Virus record (IMG/VR): IMGVR_UViG_3300043429_000131
DNA: 64,000 bases
Direction: 5' to 3' (one strand)
DNA from: a virus
The notes below the pieces were generated by a model that did not search any database, was not told where the DNA came from, and worked only from the letters and a program-made list of their open reading frames with translations. Position 1 is the stretch's first letter. The number at the start of each line of letters is the position of its first letter. Below, in pieces: positions 26,894 through 47,528 of the stretch. The translations under genes were made by a program, and so were the position numbers.

Positions 26894-27184
26894 TATGCAC
26901 CGTGAGACGGGAGTTGCGAAGTATATACCACTAATTAAGAAGGAGGTAAAGATACTCTTGACGGGGGGTGTTTCGCATGGGGGCTTAGTAAAGCTTGGCA
27001 GAAAAGCGAAGGGGGTGGGGGTAATGTTGTCAATTTAGTTACAGAGTTGTGAAGTGTGGTATCGGTTGTGCAAACTAGTGTGTATGTAGTTGGTAGGAGT
27101 CCCAAGCTGCTGAGTCGATGGGTGGGGGTCGAGTTGCCAGATTGATACTAACAATGTTAGCCTTATTTTCGCTTACAAAAAACA

Positions 27185-27213
27185 ATGCGAATCTAATCTA
27201 ATTGTGTTACATT
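27185..27213 (+). promoter_or_regulatory. putative early promoter P0
   Basis: ATGCGA-17bp-TACATT; shares TTGTGT just before -10 with promoters at 28770 and 31588. Confidence 0.5.
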
Positions 27214-27279
27214 CAAATCATCGAAACAGCGCAGCATTGTCTCGATACTCTTATCAACGTAACTGTAAAGGATTACAAA

Positions 27280-27837
27280 ATGGAAAACGTCAAAAATGTT
27301 AGTACCGCCCCCGCCGCCGCTGCAGTTGTCGATATTCCGAAGGATGTCATTGTTGCACGTAACCGCGTGATCGAAGCAGAAACAAAATCGTACGGTGCGC
27401 GCATCGGTTACGCATCGGCGCTCAATAGCATGGCGGGCTCTGCGTGGTATCGCGACGGCGCGGACAAAGTGATCAGCATTGAAGCGGAGAAGGCTAATCT
27501 TTACGCTGGCTTGAAAAAGGCTAATCACTCAAACCCGTCGAAGGTATGGGGCGATATTAAAAAGTACGCGCTGATCGACGCACAAGAACGCGGCCTGTTC
27601 GGTGAGACTAAGCCCGTCGAAGGCGAAGACGGCGAAGGCGAATCCACCGGCGGCGCAAACGCAAATGCCCCGCGCCCGCTGCAGTTGCGCCTTGTCGAGG
27701 AGTTAACCGCGCTTTACAAAGTGTGTGACAAAGAGAAAGCTTTCCTTACTGATCAGCAGAAAGCAGCATCGCTCTGCATCACTAAGGCGCTGGAATCGCT
27801 GGGCGTGAATCTCGGCCTGATCAAAACCGGCAAATAA
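27280..27837 (+). CDS. first early gene, unknown function (185 aa)
   Basis: ATG at 27280 after AAGGA; followed by GC hairpin 27845-27862. Confidence 0.8.
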   Translation: MENVKNVSTAPAAAAVVDIPKDVIVARNRVIEAETKSYGARIGYASALNSMAGSAWYRDGADKVISIEAEKANLYAGLKKANHSNPSKVWGDIKKYALIDAQERGLFGETKPVEGEDGEGESTGGANANAPRPLQLRLVEELTALYKVCDKEKAFLTDQQKAASLCITKALESLGVNLGLIKTGK

Positions 27838-27883
27838 TCAACGAGCGGGGCGAAAGCCCCGCCTAACAATGTTAGGTTATCAA

Positions 27884-27967
27884 ATGAAAAACTACGGCTT
27901 CGAACTTCTCGCTACAATCTACTGCGCCGTGATGCTGTACTGCGCTGTCCTGATGATGATCGTTTAA
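27884..27967 (+). CDS. 27-aa hydrophobic peptide (not in ORF track)
   Basis: MKNYGFELLATIYCAVMLYCAVLMMIV*, between palindrome 27863 and terminator. Confidence 0.45.
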   Translation: MKNYGFELLATIYCAVMLYCAVLMMIV

Positions 27968-27985
27968 CCCGCCCCGCTTCACCAG

Positions 27986-28007
27986 AACCCGCTTCGGCGG
28001 GTTTTTT
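27986..28007 (+). terminator. rho-independent terminator between convergent genes
   Basis: AACCCGC-TTCG-GCGGGTT-TTTT. Confidence 0.85.
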
Positions 28008-28013
28008 GTTTTG

Positions 28014-28343
28014 TCACTGCCATTCATCGACTATGGTTTTCAGGTCTGCACCTTGTGATAGTTCTCGGGGTCGCTCGGTGGTCTGGTTGCGTTGCGCTTC
28101 GGCTTGGGCACGAATTGCACGTCGCTCTGCGTTCGTCCAGCCGTCAATTCCGACTTTATCGTCGGGGTCTTCGACGGGTTTTGGCGGCGCGACAGCGGGG
28201 GGTTTGGCTTGATGCGCATCCACAAAAGCCTGCAAAGCTTGGCGAGAAATGGTCGAAACATTCGTGTGAAAAATTTGTGCTAAATTTTCGATCTGTTGGT
28301 AAAGGGTTTCGTTCATTTCAAAAGCGATTCGTTTTTTGCTCAT
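28014..28343 (-). CDS. ribbon-helix-helix (CopG/Arc-like) DNA-binding protein, candidate repressor
   Basis: KKRIAFEMNETLYQQIENLAQIFHTNVSTISRQALQAFV fits the RHH strand-helix-helix pattern; GGAG RBS 8 nt before ATG; only minus-strand gene I could support in the early arm. Confidence 0.75.
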   Translation of the reverse strand: MSKKRIAFEMNETLYQQIENLAQIFHTNVSTISRQALQAFVDAHQAKPPAVAPPKPVEDPDDKVGIDGWTNAERRAIRAQAEAQRNQTTERPRELSQGADLKTIVDEWQ

Positions 28344-28378
28344 TTTTTTCACTCCGTTTTTTTGAAGAAAGTGTACGA

Positions 28379-28407
28379 ATCATACACAAGGTTCAAAAAA
28401 TTTTCAA
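28379..28407 (-). promoter_or_regulatory. promoter of RHH gene
   Basis: TTGAAA-17bp-TATGAT with TG extension; palindrome variant at 28428 lies 20 bp upstream. Confidence 0.65.
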
Positions 28408-28769
28408 TGGTTTGTAAGCGATTTAACCTAACTTTGTTAGGGAATTTGGCGTTTTTTGACGTTGTTCTTACAATAACAGTCCTTTAAAATCAATGACTTA
28501 CGATGCAATGTTAAGTGTTAGGCTTTTTTGGCGAAGTATATACGCAACTGCGAGCGGAGAAGCAGCCTCGCAAGTGCAAAAAATAAAATTGGGTGGACGT
28601 ATATATATTATTTTTCCTAAACAAATTAACATTAGACAAGCAAAATCTTTCAGATGCCGCACCAGCACTGCGTTTTGCCTGTTAGGTTTTTTGTTAGGTT
28701 CGCAAAATAATCCACAACATTGCCCCTCATTTCCTAAACACCCGCGTGCGCACCAGACCCGCCAAAAGC

Positions 28770-28798
28770 TTGACTTGCCCACTATATTGTGTTATAAT
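28770..28798 (+). promoter_or_regulatory. strong sigma70 early promoter P1
   Basis: TTGACT-17bp-TATAAT. Confidence 0.88.
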
Positions 28799-28854
28799 TA
28801 AAAGAAAACAGCGTGAGAAACCAAAACCTAACAATGTTAGATACGGAGCGAACG

Positions 28855-29043
28855 ATGGCTAAACTTAAGACCTACCTGATGGAGCAGCAGGAACAGCACA
28901 TGAACGACGAAGAAATCGAAACCTACCTTGAACTGCTGCACGAAGAATGGCTCGCTAAACACGAAGCTTACCGTTACGAAGATAACCCTAACCCAAACGA
29001 CACAAACAAAGGGGCTAACAATGTTAGGTGCAGTGATGGCTAG
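28855..29043 (+). CDS. hypothetical early protein
   Basis: MAKLKTYLMEQQE..., GGAG RBS (alternative start 28834 lies inside the palindrome). Confidence 0.6.
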   Translation: MAKLKTYLMEQQEQHMNDEEIETYLELLHEEWLAKHEAYRYEDNPNPNDTNKGANNVRCSDG

Positions 29044-29266
29044 GGTTGAGTGGGTTGTGGCAGAGGAGTGGTGTGACCTGATAGACCACGACAAAAAGTG
29101 GTGGCAGGTGACGTACCGCCAAGCTAGAACAAATTATGCCGTGTGGGAAGTGATGTACCCCGGCACTCGGAACACAGAGTACATACCCATAAAAGACATG
29201 CCAGAACATCAACTGCGCGACCGACTGAGAATGGAATACCTACTACTGAGGGGTGCTGATGACTAA
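29021..29266 (+). CDS. hypothetical early protein, paralog 1 (QLRDRLR.EYLL family)
   Basis: ATG inside palindrome; WCDL..D...W..TYR...PEHQLRDRLRMEYLL. Confidence 0.7.
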   Translation: MLGAVMARVEWVVAEEWCDLIDHDKKWWQVTYRQARTNYAVWEVMYPGTRNTEYIPIKDMPEHQLRDRLRMEYLLLRGADD

Positions 29267-29510
29267 GGTCATATGGAAACGGTGCAAGCCTGACTCAGAT
29301 GGCGTGGTGTGGTGCGACTTGCTTGACCCTGATGCTAATGCTAACGGCGCGTGCTGGGTCATTACGTACCGCGACTATTACGAAAGCTGGCACGTGATGT
29401 GGAACACCCTTATCTCAGACAGACCCGACCATCTAATCAGCAAAACCATACCAGAAAAGCAACTACGCGACCGACTGAGGCTTGAGTACTTATTAACGAG
29501 GGGAGGCTAA
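29259..29510 (+). CDS. hypothetical early protein, paralog 2
   Basis: WCDLLDPD...W.ITYR...PEKQLRDRLRLEYLL. Confidence 0.7.
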   Translation: MTKVIWKRCKPDSDGVVWCDLLDPDANANGACWVITYRDYYESWHVMWNTLISDRPDHLISKTIPEKQLRDRLRLEYLLTRGG

Positions 29511-29512
29511 CA

Positions 29513-29710
29513 ATGTTAGAGAAGGAGCGCATAGCAAAAACGAAACATTGGATACAACACATCATCCTGAGTAAAAAACTAGGCGTAGACATACAGATAC
29601 CCGACGAGGACTGGGACTGGATGGTGTGCAACTGGGGCAGCGAAAGTGGGAACCGCAGCCTGTACGGGCAGCTATGGGACGAAGTAGAAAAGGAGATGCA
29701 CAATGACTAA
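29513..29710 (+). CDS. hypothetical early protein
   Basis: GGAGG RBS, ATG inside palindrome. Confidence 0.65.
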   Translation: MLEKERIAKTKHWIQHIILSKKLGVDIQIPDEDWDWMVCNWGSESGNRSLYGQLWDEVEKEMHND

Positions 29711-29915
29711 CGAAGATGCGCGGTATCTGTGCGTAGTATGCGGTGGCTACATTGCCCACGAGCGGTACAAACTGGGCTATAAAACATGTACCCAGTGCGG
29801 GGAAGACGCAGCCAAGAAAGTCAGACACTGCATCGCTCCGATCAACAAAAGCAACTACATGTACATCAGCGACTTATCACAACTGAAACAACTCAACCCA
29901 AAGAGGACGACATGA
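29703..29915 (+). CDS. C4 zinc-finger protein, TraR/DksA-like
   Basis: CVVCGGYIAHERYKLGYKTCTQC resembles the CxxCGxxIxxxR...CxxC pattern. Confidence 0.55.
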   Translation: MTNEDARYLCVVCGGYIAHERYKLGYKTCTQCGEDAAKKVRHCIAPINKSNYMYISDLSQLKQLNPKRTT

Positions 29916-30298: not shown

Positions 30299-30329
30299 TA
30301 AACAAAGGCAAACGAAAGGAGACATAACA

Positions 30330-30566
30330 ATGTTAGACCGGCGACCAAGAACCAAGCCCACTGCAACCAAGGATGGGTACAAGATCAGACGCGAGGCGTA
30401 CAGCGCGGCGGCGGCACATAGTCACGAGCTGCAATGCAGTCTGTTCGGCAAGACGTACGAGCCAGTGCCAGAGATACGCAAGCGGCTAGACATGCACTTA
30501 ACTACGCACACAGTAAACAAAATGAAACACGAGATAGATGAGATCAACAAGGAGGGGGGTGCATGA
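30330..30566 (+). CDS. hypothetical early protein
   Basis: AAGGAG RBS, ATG inside palindrome variant. Confidence 0.6.
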   Translation: MLDRRPRTKPTATKDGYKIRREAYSAAAAHSHELQCSLFGKTYEPVPEIRKRLDMHLTTHTVNKMKHEIDEINKEGGA

Positions 30567-31118: not shown

Positions 31119-31335
31119 CATAACATTGTTAGGCGTATTAGCTGCGGGGCTGGGGGTGTATTGCTTGTACTTACAGCTACGCGTCAACACACTAAACGCT
31201 GCGGGGAAGTTCATGACCGGGCTGCTTATCAAAACGGTGCAGGGATACACCAACAAGTCCGAGCTTGAGGCAGCAGAAGAAGTACGGCGCATGGCAAAAG
31301 AGCACGCCGCACACGAGGTAGCAAAACATTTCTAA
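31111..31335 (+). CDS. small membrane protein
   Basis: N-terminal TM helix; GGAGG RBS. Confidence 0.6.
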   Translation: MSDITLLGVLAAGLGVYCLYLQLRVNTLNAAGKFMTGLLIKTVQGYTNKSELEAAEEVRRMAKEHAAHEVAKHF

Positions 31336-31587: not shown

Positions 31588-31616
31588 TTGACTTGATTAC
31601 TATTTTGTGTTATAAT
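31588..31616 (+). promoter_or_regulatory. strong sigma70 promoter P2 (near copy of P1)
   Basis: TTGACT-17bp-TATAAT; TTGACTTG....ACTAT.TTGTGTTATAATTAA shared with 28770. Confidence 0.88.
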
Positions 31617-31741
31617 TAAGTATAAGTCGGGGAAGTAAACGCAGTAAGTGCAACGCCGCAGTGAAGCCTAACATTGTTAGGTGTATCAAAGCAACAGCAA
31701 CACACGCAACATAATATAAATAACTTTTTAGGAGAATCACG

Positions 31742-32806
31742 ATGTCTGAAATTACTTTCGGTAAGACCGTCTCGCTCGACCAAGCAGCGAACGTAATCCT
31801 GCACACCCCGATGAACCGCTATCTGCTCGAAGGTGAGCCCGGTATCGGTAAGTCAACACTTATTAAAGCAATCGCAGCCAAGCTGCCCACACATGAGGTG
31901 GCGTACATCGACGTGCCGAACATGGACTTGGGCGACATTGCCATGCCTGTCGTTGACCACGAGACCCGCACTACCAAGTACTACCCGAACTCCCGCTTCA
32001 AGCTGCAGACCGGCAAGCCAGCAATCATCATGCTTGATGAGTACACCAAAGGTGCGCAACCAGTTAAGAACATGCTACATCCACTGCTTGAGGTTACTAA
32101 CCCACGGCTAGGCGACATGCCCATACACCCTGAGTCCATCATCTTTCTGACGGGCAATCTCAGCACTGACGGGGTGGGTGACCAGCTACCTGCACACAGC
32201 CGCAACCGCATCATCCCACTACAAGTACGCAAGCCAGACGCGGAAGAGTGGATCAGCTGGGGTATCAACAACGGCATCGAGGCCGAGCTGTTGGCGTGGG
32301 CGCGTCAGTATCCGCATGCCTTCGCGTCATACACAGATGCAGGGCAAGCTGAGAATCCGTACATCTTCAACCCACGCAAGCAACAGAAAGGCTTTGTGTC
32401 TGGCCGCTCGCTGGAACGTGCATCTAACATTGTTAGGATTCGCAAGCTGTTGGATAGCGACACATTGATCGCAGCCATGAGCGGTGCAGTGGGTGAGTCA
32501 GCAGCACGTGACATCCAAGCGTACATCGACTTCTCTTCGCAGCTACCAACGTGGGAGCAGACGATAACTAACCCAATGACAGCGCCTGTGCCTACGTCTG
32601 CTGGTGCATGTGCAGTGGTGGTGTATGGCGCAATCGCTAAGGTGGATAAGCAAACCATCACACCATTTATGCAATACCTTGAGCGGTTCGACCCTGAGTG
32701 GCAAGCATGCTTCGCTATCAACATCGCCAAGTCGAGCAAGCAAAGCATTGCGTTCAGTTGCAAAGCATTCAGTGATTGGGTGAGTCGTAACGAGGATTTG
32801 TTGTGA
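31742..32806 (+). CDS. MoxR-type AAA+ ATPase
   Basis: Walker A GEPGIGKST, Walker B IIMLDE, FLTGN sensor; upstream of VWA partner. Confidence 0.88.
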   Translation: MSEITFGKTVSLDQAANVILHTPMNRYLLEGEPGIGKSTLIKAIAAKLPTHEVAYIDVPNMDLGDIAMPVVDHETRTTKYYPNSRFKLQTGKPAIIMLDEYTKGAQPVKNMLHPLLEVTNPRLGDMPIHPESIIFLTGNLSTDGVGDQLPAHSRNRIIPLQVRKPDAEEWISWGINNGIEAELLAWARQYPHAFASYTDAGQAENPYIFNPRKQQKGFVSGRSLERASNIVRIRKLLDSDTLIAAMSGAVGESAARDIQAYIDFSSQLPTWEQTITNPMTAPVPTSAGACAVVVYGAIAKVDKQTITPFMQYLERFDPEWQACFAINIAKSSKQSIAFSCKAFSDWVSRNEDLL

Positions 32807-32811
32807 GGTGA

Positions 32812-33024
32812 GTGATGCGGATTTATTTTGACCGAAGAAGACGTGCTTGGGTGGGCGCTAAAAATTTACAGCGGCTGCATGACACAGATCACTCGCTTGA
32901 TTTTGACGACGCTACAAGGTTGTATCGGATATGCCGAGAAGATGGAAATACTACACCAGTAACCGATTGGATTCCGTACCAAGAAATGATCCGATATGTG
33001 AAGTTAATCATAGGGGGAGACTAA
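32812..33024 (+). CDS. hypothetical small protein (E..Y.KL C-terminal family)
   Basis: LYRI.R...TPVT...EMIRYVKLI. Confidence 0.6.
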   Translation: MMRIYFDRRRRAWVGAKNLQRLHDTDHSLDFDDATRLYRICREDGNTTPVTDWIPYQEMIRYVKLIIGGD

Positions 33025-33026
33025 CA

Positions 33027-33239
33027 ATGTTAGATGAGGATAAGCATGTGTACTACTGGGCATGGGCTGAGTATGACAACCCTAATGTATACACAAACCC
33101 CAAACTGTACAGGGTGTTTCGATTGACCCCAAAAATGGGTACTAAAGACGAGCCAATCACCGAAGCAATGAGCAAGGTTGAGGCTATCGAGTACTGCAAA
33201 CGCATTGTCAAGCTAACCGGAGGGAGAGAAATCAGATGA
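33027..33239 (+). CDS. hypothetical small protein (E..Y.K C-terminal family)
   Basis: ATG inside palindrome; LYRVFR...EPIT...EAIEYCK. Confidence 0.65.
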   Translation: MLDEDKHVYYWAWAEYDNPNVYTNPKLYRVFRLTPKMGTKDEPITEAMSKVEAIEYCKRIVKLTGGREIR

Positions 33240-34417
33240 GCGAACCAAGAGACAAGGAAGAGCGCAAGCTCAAGAAGGTCAAGATTGCATTGATGCGTAA
33301 CCCACTCTTTGCGCTGTATCAAGGCGTGATGATGGTGGGTAAGACATCGCTGCGTGATGACATTCCGACTGCGTGTACCAACGGACGCGACGAGATATAC
33401 GGACGCACATTCGTCAAGGAGCTAGACGAGAAGGAGCTTGCCTTCGTGGTAATGCACGAGTGTATGCACAAGGTCTATCGTCACCTGACCACATGGAAGA
33501 AGCTGCACGAGGAGAACGCTCTGCTTACTAATGCAGCGTGTGACTACGTGATCAACCTGAAGCTTAAAGACATCGACCCCGATGGTAAGTACATGCGCAT
33601 GCCAATGAAGAACGGCAAGCCATTCGGTCTGATCGACGAGAAGTATCGGGGCATGCACACCAAGCAAGTCTTCGACGCACTAAAGCAAGACGGTGCGGGT
33701 GGTGGGGGTGATGGCTTCGACGAGCACGACTGGGACGGTGCCGAGGAGATGACTGACCAAGAGAAGGAAGAGCTTCACCGCGAGATCGACCGAGCTATCC
33801 GCCAAGGGCAGATTGCAGCTAAGAAAGCAGGTACAGGTGCGGGTGGGCTTGACCGTGAACTGGGTGACTTGATGGAACCCAAGGTGGACTGGCGCGAGGT
33901 GCTGCGTGAGTTTGTGAAATCAATCTGTAATGCAAAGGATGCTTCATCATGGAGACGAGTAAACCGCCGGTTCATCGGCAGCGACATCTACTTGCCCACA
34001 CTTATCGGGGAACGAGTAGGGCATATCGTAATAGGCATAGACACCAGTGGGTCTATCGGGGGCAAGGAGTTAAGCGACTTCCTATCTGAGGTGAAAGGGA
34101 TTGCTGATGAGGTTCGACCGGAGCGCGTTGACTTGCTGTACTGGGATAGCGAGGTGGCAGGGCATGAAGAGTATGACGAGTACAGCGTGGCTAACATTGT
34201 TAGCAGTACGAAACCACGTGGAGGTGGTGGTACGAGCCCTTCATGTGTTACTGCTTATCTTAAGGATAAAGCTATCAAGCCCGAGTGCGTCATCATGCTC
34301 ACGGACGGCTACGTCGGTGATGATTGGGGTGGAGACTGGCCGTGTCCTGTTCTCTGGACTATCGTGGCTGGCAATAGTGACGTTGCCCCAAGCGGCAAAA
34401 CTATTCACATTAACTAA
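33236..34417 (+). CDS. metallopeptidase-like + VWA domain protein (DUF2201-type)
   Basis: TACTNG, HECMH (HExxH), N.A.D..IN; MIDAS IDTSGS, GGGGTS, LTDGY. Confidence 0.88.
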   Translation: MSEPRDKEERKLKKVKIALMRNPLFALYQGVMMVGKTSLRDDIPTACTNGRDEIYGRTFVKELDEKELAFVVMHECMHKVYRHLTTWKKLHEENALLTNAACDYVINLKLKDIDPDGKYMRMPMKNGKPFGLIDEKYRGMHTKQVFDALKQDGAGGGGDGFDEHDWDGAEEMTDQEKEELHREIDRAIRQGQIAAKKAGTGAGGLDRELGDLMEPKVDWREVLREFVKSICNAKDASSWRRVNRRFIGSDIYLPTLIGERVGHIVIGIDTSGSIGGKELSDFLSEVKGIADEVRPERVDLLYWDSEVAGHEEYDEYSVANIVSSTKPRGGGGTSPSCVTAYLKDKAIKPECVIMLTDGYVGDDWGGDWPCPVLWTIVAGNSDVAPSGKTIHIN

Positions 34418-34885: not shown

Positions 34886-35079
34886 TGAGTAGGCACAAGG
34901 TGCTGTACTACAAAAGCGATGACAATGGGGTGTACAAAATAGTTAAGCGCAAGTCTGTTGGGCGCAAGCGAGTGCTGTACAAAGCTGCGGGGACCGCGTG
35001 GAAACTAGTTAAACAAGGTATGAGTGCAAACGAAGCAGAAGCATATATAAAGCTGTTGGGTTTAAAACTTTGGGACTAA
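34885..35079 (+). CDS. hypothetical small protein (EA.AY.KLL family)
   Basis: VKQGMSANEAEAYIKLL. Confidence 0.65.
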   Translation: MSRHKVLYYKSDDNGVYKIVKRKSVGRKRVLYKAAGTAWKLVKQGMSANEAEAYIKLLGLKLWD

Positions 35080-35093
35080 AAAGGAGCAATAAC

Positions 35094-35954
35094 ATGGGTA
35101 TCTCATCAAGCGCAGTATTGGTAGAGCTGAACGTATCCGTCTGGGGTGCAAGCAAGGTAGACCGCGATGCAACCGACGACGTGAACATCCGCAACAACGC
35201 AACACGTGACGCATCCAAGGTCTACAAGAACCTGACCGCAGGTACATCCCTGCGCAAAGACATCAGCGACTACGCTGCAAAGATTCGCCAGTTTCATAAC
35301 CGACAGACTTTACCGTGGACGCATAAAGGTGCTCGACTGCTGCCTACTTCCCACGTACTAGAGTACAAGCAACACATGAATGCAATGGAGCGCCAGTTCA
35401 ATGCGCTGTTGCATAAGTTTTACGTCGAGTACCCTAACATTGTTAGCCAAGCGCAGACTAACTTGCGCGGCATGTTCAAGGCCGATGACTATCCAACCCT
35501 TGAGGAAGTGCAGGAGAAGTTCGGATACAAGCTGGTGTTCTCTCCCCTACCCGAAGCGGGGGACTTCCGTCTGGACGTAGCTAACGAAGAGCTGCGGGAA
35601 CTATCACTCTCTTATGAAGCGGACTTCAACGAGCGTCTGGGTAAAGCTATGCGTGAGCCATGGGAACGACTGCATGAGACGTTGACTCACCTGAGCACTA
35701 AACTGACCGATGCGCAGGATGGTAGCGAGGAAGTTAAGCGCCGTTACCACGACAGTCTTGTGACCAACGCGCAAGGGCTGTGTGAGCTGCTGACTAAACT
35801 AAATATTACGAACGACCCTAAGCTTGAGGAAGCACGCCGCAGTCTTGAGCTAACAATGTTAGGTGTGGACATCGACTCCATCAAAGAGTCACCCGAGGTG
35901 CGACACAGCGTCAAGTCTAGGGTGGATGCAATCCTTGAGAAGTTTGACTGGTGA
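35094..35954 (+). CDS. conserved phage protein, helical (DUF3150-like)
   Basis: SAVLVELNVSVW...TLPW...GARLLP...YP.....KF; AAAGGAG RBS. Confidence 0.7.
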   Translation: MGISSSAVLVELNVSVWGASKVDRDATDDVNIRNNATRDASKVYKNLTAGTSLRKDISDYAAKIRQFHNRQTLPWTHKGARLLPTSHVLEYKQHMNAMERQFNALLHKFYVEYPNIVSQAQTNLRGMFKADDYPTLEEVQEKFGYKLVFSPLPEAGDFRLDVANEELRELSLSYEADFNERLGKAMREPWERLHETLTHLSTKLTDAQDGSEEVKRRYHDSLVTNAQGLCELLTKLNITNDPKLEEARRSLELTMLGVDIDSIKESPEVRHSVKSRVDAILEKFDW

Positions 35955-36339: not shown

Positions 36340-36342
36340 GAT

Positions 36343-36446: not shown

Positions 36447-37430
36447 ATGTTCGGACGATTTAAGGGTGGCGGTATACCCGCACTGAGTAGCTACGCAGAA
36501 GCAATGGCGCACTGGGAGAACGTCAAGCCTATACGTGGGCGCAGGGATGACGAGCGACCACTGGGTGATCGGCGTAAGAGCGAGATGCAGATTGCTCGTA
36601 ACTTGGACACTGTTATATGCGTGCTGTACCACACGAACGTCATTACGTTTCACCCGGACGACACAATAACAGTCAACGTACCGGAGGAGTGGCGCACACA
36701 TACAACTGCGGAGTTTATCCATGCGGTGCTACGCAACTACACCAAGTACGTGGGTATCGCTGATGGTGATGTAGTGATGGCACTCAACGGGCCAACCCCC
36801 GGCTATTTCCGTATGGGTACGAAGACTAGGTTCAAGCTGCACCCCAACAGACTGGAGTTACTCGGGGGTAACATTGTTAAGAACACCCACGCAGTTAACC
36901 GTAAGGCGATGAACGCAGCACGCAAGGAGATCGATGGCTTTCTGACTTACCTACGCGGGGCGCATAAGCTGCGGGATGGGCTCTACTCTTCGGATGAGAT
37001 GCAAATACTTTATGACTTTTTACTTAACCATAAGCAATTAGAAGCAAGCTTTCCGTTTGATTCGTTCATGTCTTCGAACTTTCATTGGTCGTTATCTTTA
37101 CCTTTGACTAATAAATGGGCGGGGCGTGGGACTAGCATAATGACGTGGCACGACAGGGCTAAGTTTGCAATGAAGTTAATGCGTGAGGGTTCACATGAGG
37201 ACTGGTATGCGGTATCGTTGTGGTTAGTTGCGAGTTCTTACCTTGTGGCTCACGGCAAAGATGTAAATGTCCACCTTGGGTCTTTGACTCAAGACATAAC
37301 AGACATGCTACTGGTAACGACACCGGGCGCACTTGTCGCAACACCTGAGCCGTATGGGGTGATCAAGGTAGACAGCAACAGGCAGGTAGCCGAGGTTAGA
37401 AACTATATTGCAGAAGTGGAGGCGAGTTGA
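36447..37430 (+). CDS. hypothetical protein
   Basis: 327 aa from ATG 36447; KPIRGR....RPLGDRR. Confidence 0.75.
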   Translation: MFGRFKGGGIPALSSYAEAMAHWENVKPIRGRRDDERPLGDRRKSEMQIARNLDTVICVLYHTNVITFHPDDTITVNVPEEWRTHTTAEFIHAVLRNYTKYVGIADGDVVMALNGPTPGYFRMGTKTRFKLHPNRLELLGGNIVKNTHAVNRKAMNAARKEIDGFLTYLRGAHKLRDGLYSSDEMQILYDFLLNHKQLEASFPFDSFMSSNFHWSLSLPLTNKWAGRGTSIMTWHDRAKFAMKLMREGSHEDWYAVSLWLVASSYLVAHGKDVNVHLGSLTQDITDMLLVTTPGALVATPEPYGVIKVDSNRQVAEVRNYIAEVEAS

Positions 37431-37723
37431 ACAAGGTCAATCAGGATACGTACGCACGGGCTTTTAAGTTATTGCTAAGCCGCCCTGTATCGGCGCATGA
37501 GATCGTAAAAGAAACAGGCATACACATAGTCACGGCACAGCGGTTGATGCGTACGCTAAAGCAGCACGAGATTATTTATATATGCAACTGGCGGCAAGAT
37601 ACAAAAGGACGGGACGCTATCCCTGTGTACGAGATCGGGTTCCACAAAGATAAACCACGGCGTGCTATGACTCAGGCACAACGACAACAACGATGCAGAG
37701 CTAAGAAGGAGAAGAACGGATGA
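37427..37723 (+). CDS. winged-helix/HTH DNA-binding protein
   Basis: LLLSRPVSAHEIVKETGIHIVTAQRLMRTL; RRAMTQAQRQQRCR. Confidence 0.6.
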   Translation: MNKVNQDTYARAFKLLLSRPVSAHEIVKETGIHIVTAQRLMRTLKQHEIIYICNWRQDTKGRDAIPVYEIGFHKDKPRRAMTQAQRQQRCRAKKEKNG

Positions 37724-37914: not shown

Positions 37915-38819
37915 CACGAGTATGTTTTGCTGATGTCGGGTTCCCGACTAACATTGTTATATCGAACAAGATAGACCAATGGCGCACCAAGGTATTTACG
38001 CTAGACGATGTGGTGTTTGGCAAAATGTCTTCGCAGGTAATACCAGTGGTGGCGAGGATGTTCCCGGCGTGGGAATTCATGGTGACCCACGTTCATACGG
38101 AAGGGTTTTACGAGAAGCGTTGGGTGTTTCCGACGAGAATAATAGTGTCTGAGAAAGGTGTCGAACGGGGCAAGATACAGATCGACAATCCATGGCGTTC
38201 ATACGGCGAGAGCTTAGTCTTTTTAAACCCACGTATTCATAACGCCATGCAACGGGGAAGGTATAAGATCACAACCAAACCCAAGGTAGCTATACAAATT
38301 GTGAAGCAATACTTCACTGACCCACCCATTACAGAAACTATAGCAGTGGTAAGCAAGCAGCTCAAGTCTACTGCGAATATGCAACGGACTACGTTCAAAG
38401 CATCGAGAGACTTAGAGTACCTACGGTTAACAGATTTAGTGCGGCCATACGTTGATGAACACTTAGTAGAGATTGCAAAGCAAGTGCACGAAGTAAACGC
38501 TAACTTCAATGTGCCAAAGTACTTGGAGCTTGTTGAGGACACAAAAATATCTGAGTCTGTTGCTGATGTCCCGGCCAATTCTGCATTGACAGTCATGATA
38601 CGTAATGATAAATATGTGTTACATAGAAGTAATATGCCAGTCTTTGCGCTGACCTCAGAGCACTTACCGGAACAGGTTCGTACGGCGATAGGGCTGCTCA
38701 AGCTGGTAGATGACGGCCAGTTTGTGCGGGATGTAGGGTACAGGCACAAGGCAGATCAATTTTTAGTTGTATACGCTGGGCCATTTAACGAGGAGCTAAC
38801 ATGCAAAACTTCAAGCTGA
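37911..38819 (+). CDS. hypothetical protein
   Basis: 302 aa ORF, AAGGAG RBS. Confidence 0.7.
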   Translation: MTRVCFADVGFPTNIVISNKIDQWRTKVFTLDDVVFGKMSSQVIPVVARMFPAWEFMVTHVHTEGFYEKRWVFPTRIIVSEKGVERGKIQIDNPWRSYGESLVFLNPRIHNAMQRGRYKITTKPKVAIQIVKQYFTDPPITETIAVVSKQLKSTANMQRTTFKASRDLEYLRLTDLVRPYVDEHLVEIAKQVHEVNANFNVPKYLELVEDTKISESVADVPANSALTVMIRNDKYVLHRSNMPVFALTSEHLPEQVRTAIGLLKLVDDGQFVRDVGYRHKADQFLVVYAGPFNEELTCKTSS

Positions 38820-38989
38820 AACTGATTGATAAGAAGAAAGAAGCCAAAGAAGAGTTAAAGAAGGAAAGAGTGACGAGCATTCTGGATGAACGGTTTGCTT
38901 ACACCCCCGCAGCAGAGACTGATCTTGCCTCACGGTTCAAGGCCATGGGGTTCAAAGCTAAACCCAAGAAGCCACGGTTCGGTAAATGA
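38801..38989 (+). CDS. small basic protein
   Basis: ILDERFAYTPAAETDLASRFKAMGF; GAGGAG RBS. Confidence 0.6.
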   Translation: MQNFKLKLIDKKKEAKEELKKERVTSILDERFAYTPAAETDLASRFKAMGFKAKPKKPRFGK

Positions 38990-39246
38990 AGGGCGACAAT
39001 CTAGGCAACCAGCACTCGCGTACGGTTAAGGATGGGAGGCTTACCCCAAGACAAGACTTAGTTATGCGTCTGCTGGCGCAAGGGCTACGCAGTAAGGATA
39101 TTTCCGCAAGGTTAAACGTGAAGCCCAACACCGTTGCATCCATAGTCGAGCGCATATGCGTATCGTTAGATACAAAAACAATGGCACAAGCTATGGCAGT
39201 GTGGGCAGTTGCAGATTACATAGAGGCTAATGAGGAAGACGAATGA
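38986..39246 (+). CDS. LuxR/GerE-type HTH protein
   Basis: LTPRQDLVMRLLAQGLRSKDISARLNVKPNTV...I..SL. Confidence 0.8.
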   Translation: MKGDNLGNQHSRTVKDGRLTPRQDLVMRLLAQGLRSKDISARLNVKPNTVASIVERICVSLDTKTMAQAMAVWAVADYIEANEEDE

Positions 39247-39851: not shown

Positions 39852-40162
39852 AACGCATCCGGCCCGACGCCAACTTTGTAGCAGAGCAAGCAACCAGAAT
39901 GACCGAGCTGCTACAGCAACGTGCAGCCATACCACGTGAGGACTTAGAGTATCTAGTGGAGCGGGCATCGAAGTTAAAAGATGAGCGTATGCAAGGCGCA
40001 ATCGCTGGACTGATTGGGTGGGGCGACGAGGAGCGGGCTGAAGTCGAGACGTTCGTTGCTATTGCTATAGAAATTATGAAGCGCACTAACCTAACAAAGT
40101 TACGTGAAGCTGCGCAGACCGTGGAGATACGGTACCTAACTAAGGAGATGAGAGATGACTGA
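39848..40162 (+). CDS. hypothetical protein
   Basis: coupled ORF. Confidence 0.55.
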   Translation: MKRIRPDANFVAEQATRMTELLQQRAAIPREDLEYLVERASKLKDERMQGAIAGLIGWGDEERAEVETFVAIAIEIMKRTNLTKLREAAQTVEIRYLTKEMRDD

Positions 40163-42172: not shown

Positions 42173-42378
42173 ACGAACAGAAAGTAAGACGGGGGCGTGG
42201 GCCCGGCAAAAAGCCACGACACGGCATCACGAGCGTGCGCCTACCAGTGTACGTTCTTGATTATTACCGCCGGAACTTTGACAACAGCACAGCTAAGATG
42301 CGCGAGGTTCTGGTTAACTATGCAGAAGAAAATGGAGCTAACAATGGTAAAGAAAGTAAAGAAGGTATTGAGCCCTGA
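42169..42378 (+). CDS. BrnA-antitoxin-like/RHH DNA-binding protein
   Basis: RGRGPGKKP....TSVRLP..VLDYYR. Confidence 0.5.
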   Translation: MNEQKVRRGRGPGKKPRHGITSVRLPVYVLDYYRRNFDNSTAKMREVLVNYAEENGANNGKESKEGIEP

Positions 42379-42811: not shown

Positions 42812-43108
42812 ATGGCTGGTACGCCTGAGAGTAAGGTTAAGTTAGCTGTCGTTAAATTGCTTAAGCAATACGGCGTTTATTTCTTTTTCCCCGCAACTCA
42901 CGGGTACGGACGCTCAGGCGTGCCAGACATCGTATGCTGTATCAACGGTAGGTTTTTAGCTATTGAATGTAAAGCTGGAAAGAACGAGCCCACTGCACTG
43001 CAACAACGAGAAATAAACCAGATACAAGCAGCGGGTGGTATGGCAATGGTGGTCAGAGAAGACCTAACATTGTTAGAATTTTTATTGAAGGAGCTAACGT
43101 ATGAGTGA
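42812..43108 (+). CDS. VRR-NUC (Holliday junction resolvase-like) nuclease
   Basis: TPESKVK...GRSGVPDIV...RFLAIECKAG...T.LQ....I..AGG. Confidence 0.88.
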   Translation: MAGTPESKVKLAVVKLLKQYGVYFFFPATHGYGRSGVPDIVCCINGRFLAIECKAGKNEPTALQQREINQIQAAGGMAMVVREDLTLLEFLLKELTYE

Positions 43109-43601: not shown

Positions 43602-45424
43602 AAATAATCGCGTTGGATTTTGAGACGTACTACGATAGAGAGTACAGCCTCAGCAAAATAACGACTGAGGAGTACATACGCGATCCACGATTTGAAACTA
43701 TAGGAGTGGGGGTAAAAGAAGATGGACAACCTGCAGTGTGGGTATCAGGTACACACGACAAAATCAAGGCGTTTCTTGAATCGCTCGACCTACATGAGCA
43801 TCTGGTACTCGCTCATAACGCTATGTTTGATGCCGCTATTCTTAACTGGCGTTTTGGTATCCGCCCTCGGGGTTGGCTTGATACGCTTAGCATGGCCCGT
43901 GCTCTACATACCATTGAAGTGGGGGGATCACTGGCTGCACTCGCTGCGTATTACAAGCTGGGTGCGAAAGGTACGGAAGTCATCAACGCTCTTGGTAAAA
44001 GGCGAACGGACTTCACGGCGCAAGAGTTAGCTGCGTATGGCGAGTACTGCAAGAACGACTGTGCACTGACCCTTGACCTGTTCAAGATACTGTCGCAGAA
44101 CTTCGCCAAGGAAGAGTTGAAGCTTGTCGACTTGACCATCCGCATGTTCTCGGAGCCAGTGCTGGAGTTGAGCCCTACTATATTGCACGGGCACTTGGAT
44201 GAGGTGCAGGTAAATAAGAAAAAACTATTAGAGGCTGTGACCATGGTGGACAAAGGCCAGCTCATGTCGAACGACAAGTTAGCGGCAACGCTAAAGCTGT
44301 TGAGGGTGCAGCCACCTACGAAGATAAGCCCAACGACGGGTAAGGAGACCTACGCTTTTGCAAAGAGTGACGAAACATTCAAGCTATTGCTAGAACACCC
44401 TGACGTTCGAGTGCAAGCTATTGTGGCTGCTAGGTTAGGTGTTAAGTCTACGCTGGAGGAGACACGCACTCAACGTTTCATCGAGATTGCTGCGCGGGGC
44501 ACTTTGCCTATCCCTCTGCGCTACTACGCTGCACACACCGGGCGTTGGGGTGGGGACGACAAAGTCAATATGCAGAACCTCCCCCGAAGCTCTCCGCTCA
44601 AACAAGCCATCTTAGCCCCGCCGGGTTACATGATGATTGACGCTGACTCTTCGCAGATTGAAGCGCGAACGCTGGCGTGGCTGGCGGAGCAGAACGATTT
44701 GGTGGAAGCATTCGACCGGGGTGAAGACGTGTATTGCATTATGGCATCTGCCATCTACGGGCGACACATTACCAAGGCTGACAAAAACGAACGATTTGTC
44801 GGAAAGACAACTATTCTGGGTTGTGGCTACGGGATGGGCGCGGCTAAGTTTCAGGCCCAGCTAAAGAACTTCAACGTGGTGTTAGAGCTTGAAGAGTGCC
44901 AGCGCATCATCAACGTGTACCGCGAGACCTACCCCATGATTCCGGCATTCTGGAAAAAGGCTGGCGATGCTCTTGGAACTATCATGTCTAATCAGGCGGG
45001 GGAGCTGGGTAGGGATGGCATCTTAAAAATTGACGGGTTGCAAGGCATTCTTTTGCCAAACGGCATGCGCGTTAAGTACCCCAACCTGCGCAAGGTCATA
45101 AATGATGACGGCAAGACGGAGATGGTGTACGATACAAAGAGGGGGAAAGCAACCATACCGAATAGGATATACGGCGGCAAGGTGACAGAGAACGTTTGCC
45201 AAGCCCTAGCCCGCATCGCAATCGGTAAGCAAATGCTGATGATTGCCAAGAAATACAAGGTTGTAATGACGGTGCACGATGCTGTTGCTTGTATCGTGCC
45301 GGAGAGTGAAGTTGAGACAGCACGGGAATTCGTTGAGATTTGTATGCGTATACGCCCCGAGTGGGCACCTGAGCTGCCTCTTAATTGCGAATCAGGGTAT
45401 GGAAGGAGCTACGGAGAATGTTAG
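43598..45424 (+). CDS. polA: family A DNA polymerase (3'-5' exonuclease + polymerase; no 5'-3' exonuclease)
   Basis: ExoI DFET, HNAMFD; motif A DADSSQIEAR, motif B RFVGKTTILGCGYG, motif C TVHDA. Confidence 0.95.
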   Translation: MKIIALDFETYYDREYSLSKITTEEYIRDPRFETIGVGVKEDGQPAVWVSGTHDKIKAFLESLDLHEHLVLAHNAMFDAAILNWRFGIRPRGWLDTLSMARALHTIEVGGSLAALAAYYKLGAKGTEVINALGKRRTDFTAQELAAYGEYCKNDCALTLDLFKILSQNFAKEELKLVDLTIRMFSEPVLELSPTILHGHLDEVQVNKKKLLEAVTMVDKGQLMSNDKLAATLKLLRVQPPTKISPTTGKETYAFAKSDETFKLLLEHPDVRVQAIVAARLGVKSTLEETRTQRFIEIAARGTLPIPLRYYAAHTGRWGGDDKVNMQNLPRSSPLKQAILAPPGYMMIDADSSQIEARTLAWLAEQNDLVEAFDRGEDVYCIMASAIYGRHITKADKNERFVGKTTILGCGYGMGAAKFQAQLKNFNVVLELEECQRIINVYRETYPMIPAFWKKAGDALGTIMSNQAGELGRDGILKIDGLQGILLPNGMRVKYPNLRKVINDDGKTEMVYDTKRGKATIPNRIYGGKVTENVCQALARIAIGKQMLMIAKKYKVVMTVHDAVACIVPESEVETAREFVEICMRIRPEWAPELPLNCESGYGRSYGEC

Positions 45425-45765
45425 ACATTACATGGGGTGTCGTTGGGCTATCGTGCGGTATCGTCGGTAGTATGGTGTATAGCTGGGTTGAGCAGAAGAA
45501 ACGCAAGGCTGGTGCTAGACCAGAAGAAATTTCCTATGAAACACAGACCGCCATATTGAAGAGCGCCGACCACAACACTACACCCCAGATGCGCGTAGGA
45601 GTGATCGAGGCCATGAACGGACGCATCCTTGAAGTTGCAACCGCCACACAAATACACGGGCACAATCACTACGAGTGGAAGACAGAGATGTACGTGGTAC
45701 CTGAAGACCAAAAGCTGAGTGAAGCTATCGCTGTCGTGATGTTGATGAAGGGTTTGGAGAAATGA
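45418..45765 (+). CDS. membrane-anchored hypothetical protein
   Basis: N-terminal hydrophobic helix; IEAMNGRILEV. Confidence 0.55.
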   Translation: MLDITWGVVGLSCGIVGSMVYSWVEQKKRKAGARPEEISYETQTAILKSADHNTTPQMRVGVIEAMNGRILEVATATQIHGHNHYEWKTEMYVVPEDQKLSEAIAVVMLMKGLEK

Positions 45766-46436
45766 TTCCAGCATGGTCTTACAGCAGCATCAAAACCTTC
45801 GATCAATGCCCGAAGAAATATCATCATCTACGTATACTTAAGGACTTCAAAGATGAGGATTCGACTGCGACGATCTATGGTAAGGAGCTTCATAAAGCGG
45901 CGGAAGATTACATCAAGGAAGGCACTCCGATTCCGCCGAGGTTTGCTTTTCTCCAACCTGTTATGGACTCGCTTAGCAAAATTGAAGGCGAGAAGCACTG
46001 CGAAATAAAACTGGGTATAGCCAAGCGTGACGGTAAGTTTGCGCCGTGCGACTTCTTTGCAAAGGACGTGTGGTGGCGGGGTATTGCCGACCTTCTTATC
46101 ATTAACGAAGAGAAACAGACTGCTTATCTGGTGGACTACAAGACCAGCAAGAACGCTAAGTACGCCGATACCAAACAGCTAGACCTGTTGGCCGGTGCAG
46201 TGTTCACGCACTTTCCCAAAGTGGTAGAGATTAAATCCGCGCTGCTGTTTGTAGTTAGTAATGAGATCGTAAAGAAAAAGCACGAGTTTATGATGCAGAC
46301 TTCGTACCTAAACTCGATGGAGCCGGAGTTGGTTCGGTTGGAAGCCGCAATAAAGACAAACGTGTGGAACCCAGTACCTAGCCCACTGTGCAAGTTCTGC
46401 CCTGTAACAAGCTGTGCACACAATAGGAAAGGATAG
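45762..46436 (+). CDS. PD-(D/E)XK (Cas4-like) exonuclease
   Basis: WSYSSI..F.QCP, HKAAE, RGIADL..VDYKT, QLDL, C-terminal CKFC..SC (Fe-S-type). Confidence 0.88.
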   Translation: MIPAWSYSSIKTFDQCPKKYHHLRILKDFKDEDSTATIYGKELHKAAEDYIKEGTPIPPRFAFLQPVMDSLSKIEGEKHCEIKLGIAKRDGKFAPCDFFAKDVWWRGIADLLIINEEKQTAYLVDYKTSKNAKYADTKQLDLLAGAVFTHFPKVVEIKSALLFVVSNEIVKKKHEFMMQTSYLNSMEPELVRLEAAIKTNVWNPVPSPLCKFCPVTSCAHNRKG

Positions 46437-46438
46437 CT

Positions 46439-46648
46439 ATGACAGACGAAGAAAAGCAACAAACAGAAGCGTATATAAAGTTGCAAGATAACGTACAAAA
46501 ACTGGTAATTAGCGCGGTGTACGATGAGCTGGTTGCTAACCCTTACGGCATGCTGGCAAACCACATAAGAATGATCTTACAAAGCACGATAAACGACGAA
46601 ATGAAGCAGTACCGTATAACCCGTACAGGGCAGACGGCACAATACTAA
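46439..46648 (+). CDS. hypothetical protein
   Basis: AAGGA RBS, operonic. Confidence 0.55.
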   Translation: MTDEEKQQTEAYIKLQDNVQKLVISAVYDELVANPYGMLANHIRMILQSTINDEMKQYRITRTGQTAQY

Positions 46649-46655
46649 GGAGAAG

Positions 46656-47039
46656 TTGATGACTGAAGCTGAAGCACAAAAGTGCATCGACCTAGTACTT
46701 AAAGAGTACCCCGACTTAACTGCAAACGGGTTTAAGTACACAAGCAGGTATGACGGAGATTGGGGTAATGACCACGGGCCTGTCTCACCCGAAGGGTTTA
46801 TTACTGTAGTCGAATGGCTACTTAACTACGATGCGCTTGACCGTAGGAAAACCATCAATACCAGCAGAGGTAGTTACGGATGGAAGCACGTAGTGGAGCG
46901 GGACACTAAGCAGTACGTAAGCAACGGGGACTTTATTTGTGGCGCTTTATATCTCAAATACAATATGAAACGTATGCCCCGTTCCCCCAATGCGTATTTC
47001 AATTTAAGGAAGGAAACATCTCATGCCGTACGTAAATAA
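46656..47039 (+). CDS. hypothetical phage protein
   Basis: SYGWKH.VE....YVSNGDFI motif. Confidence 0.7.
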   Translation: MMTEAEAQKCIDLVLKEYPDLTANGFKYTSRYDGDWGNDHGPVSPEGFITVVEWLLNYDALDRRKTINTSRGSYGWKHVVERDTKQYVSNGDFICGALYLKYNMKRMPRSPNAYFNLRKETSHAVRK

Positions 47040-47316
47040 ACCACGCCCATACAAAAAAGAATACGAAGAGTATCAGGGCACACCAGAGCAGATTAAGAAA
47101 CGCGCCACGCGCAATGCAGCCCGTGCCAAGCTGATGAAGGAAGGCAAAGTCAGCAAGGGTGACGGTAAAGATGTTGCGCACACTAAAGCTTTATCTAAGG
47201 GCGGCACCAACGCAACAGGCCTCAAGGTAGAGAGTGCTGGCGCTAACCGGTCTTTCTTACGCGGTGCTGACCGTAGCCTGAAATCTGAAGTCAGTAAGCG
47301 GGAACGGAAGAAGTGA
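47023..47316 (+). CDS. degenerate HNH-like basic protein
   Basis: RPYKKEY...KKRA.RN.AR...KGDGKDVAH...S.GG.N...NRSF. Confidence 0.6.
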   Translation: MPYVNKPRPYKKEYEEYQGTPEQIKKRATRNAARAKLMKEGKVSKGDGKDVAHTKALSKGGTNATGLKVESAGANRSFLRGADRSLKSEVSKRERKK

Positions 47317-47528
47317 CGATTGATGGGCCCCCCTATGACGACATGACGGTGGAAGAAGCCAAGATGATCTGGCTAACAATGTTAGGTTCTGATTGGGTAG
47401 ACGAAGACATACTGCTAAACGAGCCGTACGGCTCTATGCTTGACGTTGCGGGCATGGTTTTAGAGCAGGAAGGTTTATTGGAATACGACTCTTACAAATA
47501 CAAAATAAAACTCAGATGCAAATCGTAG
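47313..47528 (+). CDS. hypothetical acidic protein
   Basis: GTG start coupled; carries palindrome at 47373 (LTMLG). Confidence 0.55.
   Translation: MTIDGPPYDDMTVEEAKMIWLTMLGSDWVDEDILLNEPYGSMLDVAGMVLEQEGLLEYDSYKYKIKLRCKS

Follow-up and report, generated by a model that had tools for sequence, protein, structure and literature searches.

What is the purpose of a short palindrome that recurs through the early genes of an uncultured phage, and what reads it? The question arises from IMG/VR record IMGVR_UViG_3300043429_000131, of which we analyzed a stretch of 64,000 nucleotides (the window; all positions are those of this whole stretch). The early arm of the window holds many copies of the 13-bp palindrome CTAACAWTGTTAG. 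We found that these copies form a real, strongly selected and evolutionarily dynamic network that is operator-like. Our preferred explanation, to which we give a probability of about 0.48, is that the palindromes are a dispersed operator network of the early arm for a phage-encoded symmetric dimer, probably the product of the first early gene (27280-27837).

The palindromes are confined to the early arm

We counted matches to CTAACAWTGTTAG throughout the window. There were 13 perfect sites, from 27148 to 47385, compared to a mean of 0.01 and a maximum of 1 in 100 dinucleotide-preserving shuffles. Allowing up to two mismatches gave 20 sites (13 perfect and 7 near-perfect; 1.26 expected). Every one was between 27148 and 47385, and there were none in 1-27 kb or 47.4-64 kb. 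That is, the minus-strand virion arms (1-27 kb and 54-64 kb) are free of sites, as is the region from 47.4 to 54 kb. About one of the three two-mismatch sites (36868, 40091 and 42338) could be a chance match. Sites are densest in the first 10 kb of the arm, beside promoters. A sequence-only reading of this DNA had reported 13 perfect copies and at least seven near-perfect ones, all in the early arm with the virion genes free of them; our counts recovered the same 13 coordinates exactly, seven near-perfect copies, and the same confinement to the arm (20 of 20 sites).

The sites occupy several kinds of position. Two are about 20-24 bp upstream of the -35 elements of the promoters of the first gene and of a divergent gene for a ribbon-helix-helix (RHH)-like protein, and others are downstream of promoters P1 and P2. 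The central ATG of the motif is a start codon, with a Shine-Dalgarno sequence upstream, at 27869, 29021, 29513, 30330, 33027 and 42344. At 29507 and 33021 the TAA of the motif is also the stop codon of the upstream gene, making complete TAA-CA-ATG stop-start junctions. Most junctions between small early genes hold a site. Copies inside genes, which include those for AAA, VWA/DUF2201 and Hjc/VRR-NUC-like proteins, translate as xN[IN]V or LT[ML]L, and the third frame contains TAA. Both the positions relative to promoters and the copies over start codons and inside genes had been described from the sequence alone, and were confirmed when we located the promoters and read the frames. The centre base of the 13 perfect sites is A in 8 and T in 5. 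The sites and the features next to them are as follows.

27148..27160: perfect site, ~24 bp before the first-gene promoter's -35, with its centre near -65; a site at this position is also present in relatives L082, L083, L084, L112, L115, L088, L166 and L167
27185..27213 (+): putative first-gene promoter, from an alignment of seven relatives; extended -10 (TGtTACATT), weak -35; TTGAGT-17-TATAAT or TGnTATAAT in relatives, by consensus match
27280..27837 (+): first early gene, 185 amino acids (aa), candidate palindrome-binding dimer
27863..27875: perfect site, directly 3' of the first gene and that gene's GC hairpin; its ATG is the start codon of a 32-aa open reading frame (ORF); arrangement repeated in L082, L166 and G002
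27869-27967 (+): ORF for a strongly hydrophobic 32-aa peptide (MLGYQMKNYGFELLATIYCAVMLYCAVLMMIV), starting at the palindrome centre, between the first gene and a strong terminator; kept in L082
27984..28005 (+): intrinsic terminator, end of the first transcription unit
28014..28343 (-): RHH-like accessory gene, not co-conserved with the motif
28407-28379: promoter of the RHH gene
28428..28440: site with one mismatch (CTAACTTTGTTAG), 20 bp 5' of the RHH promoter's -35; degenerate in L082
28770..28798 (+): promoter P1, strong, sigma-70-like, TTGACT-17-TATAAT with TG extension; kept in L082
28828..28840: perfect site, 31 nt past the P1 -10; the Shine-Dalgarno sequence for gene 28855 follows 5 nt later
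29015..29027: perfect site, includes start codon 29021
29507..29519: perfect site, TAA-CA-ATG, stop of gene 29253 and start of gene 29513
30324..30336: one-mismatch site with ATAACA half-site, includes start codon 30330
31120..31132: one-mismatch site, 9 nt into gene 31111
31588..31616 (+): promoter P2, strong, sigma-70-like, precedes the AAA and VWA genes
31668..31680: perfect site in the AAA gene leader, 53 nt past the P2 -10
32424..32436: perfect site within the AAA ATPase gene, reads N-I-V
33021..33033: perfect site, TAA-CA-ATG, stop of gene 32812 and start of gene 33027
34191..34203: perfect site within the VWA/DUF2201 gene, identical in about 20 relatives of the same class
35434..35446: perfect site within gene 35070-35954, reads N-I-V
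35850..35862: perfect site at the 3' end of gene 35070-35954, adjoins the start of gene 35863
36868..36880: two-mismatch site within gene 36396, possibly by chance
37948..37960: one-mismatch site, outer base altered, within gene 37911
40091..40103: two-mismatch site, possibly by chance
42338..42350: two-mismatch site, includes start codon 42344 of a DUF3310 gene
43064..43076: perfect site within the Hjc/VRR-NUC-like gene 42812-43108
47373..47385: perfect site within small gene 47313-47528, which precedes an SNF2 helicase gene

Relatives carry their own versions of the motif

We compared the window to related phages. None of the known phages searched had a close DNA match to the window, and the nearest isolate is Pseudomonas phage Rollin, with only ~30% identity in the primase. 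IMG/VR contains more than 360 related contigs of 60-66 kb, all uncultured, and the phage DNA was detected in lake and freshwater metagenomes; none of the RNA runs searched contained the phage. Our comparison set was 80 loci anchored on the VWA gene. Loci anchored on the primase held too few sites to be assigned to a class.

Many of the 80 loci carry the same 13-mer, in up to 22 copies. We call relatives with the window's motif class A13; these genomes have 13-22 copies each. Other loci carry a dispersed palindrome of their own, in which the half-sites are 0, 1 or 2 bp apart or are different half-sites.

Class A13 (window): CTAACAWTGTTAG
Class B14: CTAACAATTGTTAG
Class C14: CTAACAWWTGTTAG
Class D: CTGACAWWTGTCAG
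Class E: GGAACAWTGTTCC
Class F: TTTCCCACWGTGGGAAA
Class G: GTTATACSGTATAAC
Class H: TTCTAACGTTAGAA
Class I: TTTTAAGSCTTAAAA
Class J: TGTTTAAACA

Sites of different classes occupy homologous positions. Nearly every class has one immediately ahead of the VWA start, and others are on both sides of the first early gene and before ribosome-binding sites. In classes F, G, H and I, sites are 10-35 nt upstream of Shine-Dalgarno sequences. In complete relatives as well, the class-specific motif is limited to the early arm. Every site of classes F and G is in such a cluster, as are 7 of 8 C14 sites (there is one outlier), and in one 63.6-kb relative 9 of 9 sites are inside a 9-kb stretch. The absence of the motif from late genes that had been proposed for the window thus held there and in the complete relatives.

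The centre base is oriented in some classes. In class G (L132 and G005, e.g., L132:5928-13171), the centre base on the coding strand is C in 18 of 19 GTTATACSGTATAAC sites. Classes C14 (31:10) and I are also biased, though less strongly.

Selection on the DNA and the form in which it is read

The site within the VWA gene allowed us to separate selection on protein from selection on DNA. About 20 A13 loci, whose VWA proteins are 59-90% identical, keep xCT AAC ATT GTT AGx exactly, with variable codons on either side. In loci of other classes where A/S-N-I-V is also encoded, the codons are AAC ATC GTC, AAT ATC GTC and others. Judging from these alignments, the target of selection inside the VWA gene is the DNA sequence. 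The conservation at synonymous positions that the sequence-only reading had proposed as a check on intragenic copies is therefore present in the VWA gene, and it is specific to the class.

Variation among copies indicates the form in which the motif is read. We examined 167 perfect and 59 one-mismatch copies from A13 genomes. Of the one-mismatch copies, 44 were altered at position 1 or 13, in mirror image (C>A, G>T), leaving the core TAACAWTGTTA intact, and positions 2, 4, 5, 9, 10 and 12 did not vary. A change preserving a wobble pair was rare (1 of 18). Among 174 A13 sites the centre base was A in 108 and T in 66. Start codons account for 26 of these sites, all of the A type, leaving 82:66. 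The RNA hairpin predicted for A13 is marginal (-2.6 kcal/mol), and the class I motif does not fold. In addition, the site upstream of the first-gene promoter is conserved in the window and relatives. Because the near-copies vary symmetrically, the hairpin is weak or absent, the orientations are balanced and one conserved site is upstream of a promoter, we infer that a symmetric protein acts on double-stranded DNA rather than that the motif is an RNA element. That some protein reads the sites on double-stranded DNA is, in our estimate, quite likely.

The first early gene covaries with the motif

We screened for genes that follow the motif class by comparing, all against all, each ORF family within 10 kb on either side of the VWA gene. 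The first early gene was the only family that was class-pure across diverged backbones. Using tblastn, homologues were found in 10 of 10 A13 loci covering the arm boundary compared to 0 of 18 loci of other classes, several of which have closer backbones. Four further independent A13 genomes agree (G002, L166 with 43% identity, L167 and L169); each has a site ~120-140 bp before the first-gene start and another just after its stop. The gene is bracketed by sites in several classes. A profile search extended the family to classes B14 and C14, and classes F-I have a first-position gene of similar size and build.

We also compared gene trees. Mapping the classes onto the first-gene tree takes 4 changes (minimum 3; 0 of 200 shuffles gave so low a number) and places C14 in one clade with a long branch. 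The well-supported branches of the VWA tree require no fewer than 6 changes for A13 and no fewer than 4 for C14. The sequence-only reading had named the 27280 protein as a secondary candidate, below the RHH protein. The candidate itself stands, as it tracks the motif class; the ranking is reversed here.

Other possible binders did not follow the motif. The AAA, VWA and other conserved neighbouring genes had no class pattern, and neither did the small terminase. The zinc-ribbon protein (29703-29915) is found in all classes and does not covary with the motif. The helix-turn-helix (HTH) protein of the GerE type (38986-39246) is confined to the three closest relatives. A winged-helix candidate (37427-37723) gave a weak signal, and its gene is present only in close relatives and class I.

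Two of these proteins have features of their own. The zinc-ribbon protein (+ strand, 70 aa) has a C4 arrangement and a conserved C-terminal tail, LKQLNPKRTT, and is found in 36 of 80 relatives. The GerE/LuxR-type protein (+ strand, 86 aa) is a stand-alone domain (Pfam, 4e-10) with the PHROG label 'sigma factor'.

Two relatives are unusual. L087 has no dispersed palindrome and instead has, at the equivalent place (L087:6292-6426), nine tandem 15-bp repeats, TGTATTGTAAGGTTT, that resemble iterons; its first-gene homologue is on a very long branch. L104 has two paralogous copies of the first early gene (L104:1969-2580 and 3266-3796). In its 22 sites the outer half-site base is freely C or A, with counts consistent with independent choice, which suggests relaxed or doubled specificity.

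Predicted structure of the first-gene protein

The first-gene protein did not match any family significantly in Pfam, PHROG or PDB sequences. An AlphaFold2 model (mean pLDDT, a per-residue confidence score, of 81) begins with a bundle of four helices and ends in a helical hairpin, with an acidic, disordered linker between the two. Foldseek comparison of the model to PDB and AFDB gave nothing below E = 0.1, the best VIA-align Z-score was 6.9, which is within the noise for helical bundles, and TM-scores (fold similarity) in the Atlas comparison were at most 0.35.

The protein was predicted to form a symmetric homodimer, with a score of 0.67 compared to 0.00 for the best control. Of 30 homo-pairs with solved structures, 20 attained this score, compared to 1 of 23 single chains. 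Three runs shared at least 70% of contacts, with pLDDT of at least 76. Lys94 and Arg137 are invariant in the family. The idea that the C-terminal domain is a cryptic RHH was not supported by the dimer model.

A proposed early operator network

At the start of the arm is a self-contained unit. A site near -65 and an extended -10 promoter, which is weak and is kept in relatives, lead into the first gene; a second site with the 32-aa ORF comes next, and then a terminator. Further along, P1 and P2 each match 11 of 12 consensus positions and have the TG extension. Throughout A13 genomes, 20 of 39 strong promoter-like sequences have a site 31-66 nt past the -10, and nearly all of those that match 11 or 12 of 12 positions are followed by one.

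Based on this layout, we propose the following. By binding ~65 bp upstream of its weak promoter, the first-gene protein would set its own level. At sites 30-65 nt past strong host-type promoters and at gene junctions, the dimer would throttle or block host RNA polymerase. The network would then be a device for early shut-off or timing in a virulent-looking phage, and the fixed motif would double as a compact gene junction, with TAA as a stop and ATG as the next start. Protein scans covered ~45 early and middle proteins, a subset of those encoded in the window; none of the scanned proteins was recognized as an integrase, and the replication module resembles that of a virulent phage. For these reasons we consider shut-off or timing likelier than prophage immunity.

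Several observations weigh against this explanation. A13 and B14 proteins intermingle on the first-gene tree, and the 1-bp difference in spacing between their motifs is unexplained. No homology was detectable between the A13/B14/C14 family and the first-position genes of classes F-I (hhalign probability 0.2). The covariation screen spanned 10 kb on each side of the VWA gene, and a more distant phage gene or a host protein could supply the binder. The first-gene protein has no DNA-binding domain or fold recognizable in the Pfam, PHROG and structure searches, and the pI in its family ranges from 4.9 to 9.2, with many members neutral or acidic. Given that range and the missing fold, DNA binding by this protein is an indirect conclusion, and its chances are close to even. 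The 18 of 19 bias in class G is not predicted for a symmetric dimer. Many sites are on or just before ribosome-binding sites, which would suit a role in RNA as well. Lastly, all of the promoters are consensus matches only.

Weighing both sides, we judge it about a coin toss that the protein reading the sites is the first-gene product. That the network controls transcription rather than organizing DNA is the least secure step, with odds lower than those for the binder. A stronger version is possible and, in our view, unlikely: the first-gene family would be a new class of sequence-specific DNA-binding dimers, without a recognizable fold and quickly retuned, serving virulent phages as a roadblock timer and not for immunity. 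It is just as doubtful that, during such retuning, half-site spacing (0, 1 or 2 bp) and sequence shift while all 10-25 sites in a genome are rewritten in step.

Alternative explanations

The alternative that survives best, though we consider it improbable, is that the binder is something other than the first-gene product: a phage protein encoded more than 10 kb from the VWA gene, such as an injected virion protein, or a host protein. The lack of a DNA-binding family or fold in the often acidic first-gene protein is consistent with this, as is the fact that part of each relative's genome was screened. In addition, a plasmid antitoxin of the MazE type binds exactly TAACATTGTTA (PMC11826091), indicating that recognition of the motif core is open to unrelated small dimers. 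However, the motif class switches between close backbones and does so following the first gene. The conserved neighbours described above lack a class pattern, and there was no MazE/AbrB-type or other conserved DNA-binding domain among the ~45 early and middle proteins scanned.

Somewhat less probable is that the same pairs of protein and DNA serve to organize DNA by bridging or condensing it, or by marking the arm at entry or replication, in the manner of matS/MatP or Noc. One domain of the genome contains all of the sites, many of them are inside genes with no obvious use as promoter operators, and the predicted protein, with two dimerizing domains and a flexible linker, could bridge DNA. On the other hand, Pfam scans found no MatP or ParB signature, and placement is strongly non-random with respect to strong promoters and gene starts, with the highest density beside promoters in the first 10 kb.

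Comparable in standing, and if anything a little weaker, is the notion that the motif acts in mRNA, as a short hairpin or a plain sequence at or near the ribosome-binding sites of early genes, where a translational repressor or nuclease would read it. Comparable are the targets of T4 RegA and RegB and, in Cluster K mycobacteriophages, the start-associated sequences (SAS). This notion fits the restriction of the motif to the transcribed early arm, the start codons in 26 of 174 A13 sites, the F, G, H and I sites shortly before Shine-Dalgarno sequences, and the centre-base bias in classes G (18:1) and C14. It does not fit the conserved site upstream of the first-gene promoter, where no transcript is expected. 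Moreover, the variation among copies is symmetric and breaks base pairs, there is no stem covariation (all copies are one sequence), the A13 hairpin is marginal and class I unfolded, and the A13 orientations are nearly equal once the start-codon sites are removed.

We think it very improbable that the palindromes are recombination linkers at cassette boundaries that shuffle small early genes and have no dedicated binder. The small early genes between sites are indeed mosaic (most have 1-5 homologues among the 80 loci), sites are often exactly at gene junctions, and in Cluster O mycobacteriophages a gene insertion is flanked by a repeat (PMC4351075). However, linkers would not explain the strict dyad symmetry, the conserved copies in essential-looking genes, the concerted change of all copies between lineages, or the fixed placement after promoters.

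The sequence-only reading had centred the network on the divergent RHH gene (28014-28343), whose product would bind the palindromes as the hub, and had expected motif and gene to co-occur in relatives. RHH dimers are known to bind short palindromes, and a one-mismatch site is 20 bp upstream of the RHH promoter. The product has an RHH-like sequence pattern and weakly matches a PHROG family labelled 'transcriptional repressor' (E 0.003), although Pfam gave no match, and the AlphaFold2 model, from 5 sequences, is one long helix (predicted TM-score 0.29) and uninformative. The distribution of the gene is what largely refutes this proposal. It has only 4 relatives among 5.8 billion proteins, and a counterpart is present in 2 of ~14 A13 genomes: a homologue is in the same place in L082 and L169, and the gene is absent from the A13 genomes L083, L084, L089, L098, L108, L112, L115 and L167. 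A hidden Markov model built from two RHH genes found no further ones, a pattern scan of relatives found RHH-like genes only sporadically, and in L082 the site beside the RHH promoter is degenerate. Neither the central role nor the expected co-occurrence was borne out. The RHH-like gene is an accessory one, probably a regulator, of one small subclade, and there is hardly any chance that it is the hub.

Least credible of all is that an injected virion RNA polymerase, of the kind known from phage N4, uses the palindromes as promoters once they are extruded into hairpins: their 5-bp stem and 3-nt loop fit the N4 format (stem of 5-7 bp, loop of 3 nt) and a 1919-aa virion protein has a weak PHROG match to 'virion RNA polymerase' (2.4e-18), but the match covers only a non-catalytic part of the profile, Pfam finds only LPD39, no solved RNA polymerase was matched, strong conserved sigma-70-type promoters already drive the arm, class I does not fold, and the sites, some intragenic or on start codons, occur in both orientations at 13-22 copies per genome whereas N4-type promoters are few and in one orientation.

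Other features of the region

Several features of the window are of separate interest. The virion protein of 1919 aa (54030-59789, - strand) is of the polyvalent type, with an LPD39 domain and a DarB-like C-terminal region; folding covered the sequence that follows its N-terminal 735 aa. The MoxR-type AAA ATPase and DUF2201 metallopeptidase-VWA pair (31742-34417, +) are the most conserved early genes of the family, with the AAA gene in 68 of 80 loci and the VWA gene in 80 of 80. The label that PHROGs gives to the VWA protein, 'HNH endonuclease', seems to be mistaken.

An Rfam scan of the entire window gave 0 matches. Two non-coding features near the start of the arm are nonetheless conserved.

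28440..28770: conserved non-coding stretch with isolated TGTTAG half-sites and promoter P1 at its end
27112-27135: G-rich tract (GGGTGGGGG...) between the divergent arms, shortly before the first site

The first of these (~330 bp, upstream of P1) has an AT-rich core and no Rfam match. It is 89% identical to L082 over 392 bp, matching the conservation of coding sequence, and could be an origin or a regulatory region. In the second, GGGTGGGTGGGGG-like runs are conserved in L082-L084 and L112, and the tract could be a packaging or origin element.

Comparison with known systems

The closest descriptive match is to Cluster O mycobacteriophages, which have more than 30 copies of a 17-bp dyad repeat, TGTTCGG-N3-CCGAACA (PMC4351075); this is a descriptive class and not a protein family. 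Both systems have invariant inverted-repeat arms in tens of copies, located between ORFs or at their 5' ends with no meaningful orientation, and both are linked to gene flux. No binder or function has been assigned in Cluster O. In contrast to Cluster O, the sites here are in one arm only, have half-sites 0-2 bp apart and have start and stop codons built in, and there are many lineages with their own variants and a candidate binder that covaries.

The stoperators of Cluster A mycobacteriophages, which are temperate, are asymmetric sites of 13-14 bp that point the same way as transcription; the HTH repressor that binds them, of the gp71 type, is a monomer with two domains (PMC9283540). As in the network described here (20 sites over 20 kb), many 13-bp sites are dispersed in transcribed DNA beyond the promoters, and related phages differ in specificity. 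In both systems, a site downstream of a promoter could halt elongation. Unlike stoperators, the sites here are palindromic and unoriented, and the phage looks virulent. Among the ~45 proteins scanned there was no HTH repressor of the gp71 type, the sole HTH protein being the GerE-type accessory gene product. The stoperator-like silencing suggested by the sequence-only reading is thus the best functional analogy, and membership in that family fails on symmetry, orientation, repressor and lifestyle.

The SAS and ESAS repeats of Cluster K are asymmetric. SAS is 13 bp with a Shine-Dalgarno core, in a single orientation, 3-7 bp before gene starts (PMC3203893). The non-structural half of the genome, a length of 13 bp, positions at translation starts that sometimes enclose the upstream stop, and a subcluster-specific consensus are common to both systems, and the last suggests co-evolving binding proteins. 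The motif here differs in being a perfect palindrome without a Shine-Dalgarno core that is also found inside genes and upstream of a promoter.

Two further systems have symmetric sites. In the temperate Streptomyces phage phiC31, conserved inverted repeats (CIRs) are bound by the repressor c, a large protein with several isoforms. As here, one inverted repeat is present in many copies over the early region, near early promoters. An Atlas comparison to phiC31 gave a lead of 0.82, below significance, and no detectable homology was shown. The matS sites of E. coli (consensus GTGACRNYGTCAC) are 13-bp palindromes dispersed over one domain of the replicon, and MatP, which binds them, has the Pfam MatP N-terminal bundle and an RHH C-terminal domain. 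The length, symmetry and restriction to one domain are shared, and the sites here are tied to promoters and gene starts. The likeness of 9 of 13 positions that had been drawn between the two motifs proved weak: it counts degenerate letters, and 4 of 10 specified bases differ. No MatP-family protein was detected, either by Pfam for the first-gene family and the RHH gene or in the fold-search lists.

Searching the literature for the motif sequence itself gave a single match. MtvA, a MazE-like antitoxin of the Pseudomonas plasmid pPAD8, binds an 11-bp sequence, TAACATTGTTA, at a single autoregulatory site (PMC11826091). This operator is identical to the core of the motif and is bound by a small dimeric regulator. 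No protein of the MazE/AbrB type was found among the ~45 scanned in the window, and the match is probably coincidental.

Most likely, then, the network is of a kind already known, and the new part is a reader protein that has no recognized family or fold. If the candidate is right, it adds a DNA-binding family without a known fold and with naturally diversified specificities, and it means that stoperator-like control exists in virulent-looking phages. The dispersed repeat networks of phages (Cluster O repeats, SAS, stoperators and phiC31 CIRs) mostly lack a known binder or purpose. Here, more than 360 natural relatives, at least 10 motif variants at homologous positions, clear selection on the DNA within coding regions and one candidate binder that tracks the variants make the question of which protein reads such repeats, and to what end, testable.

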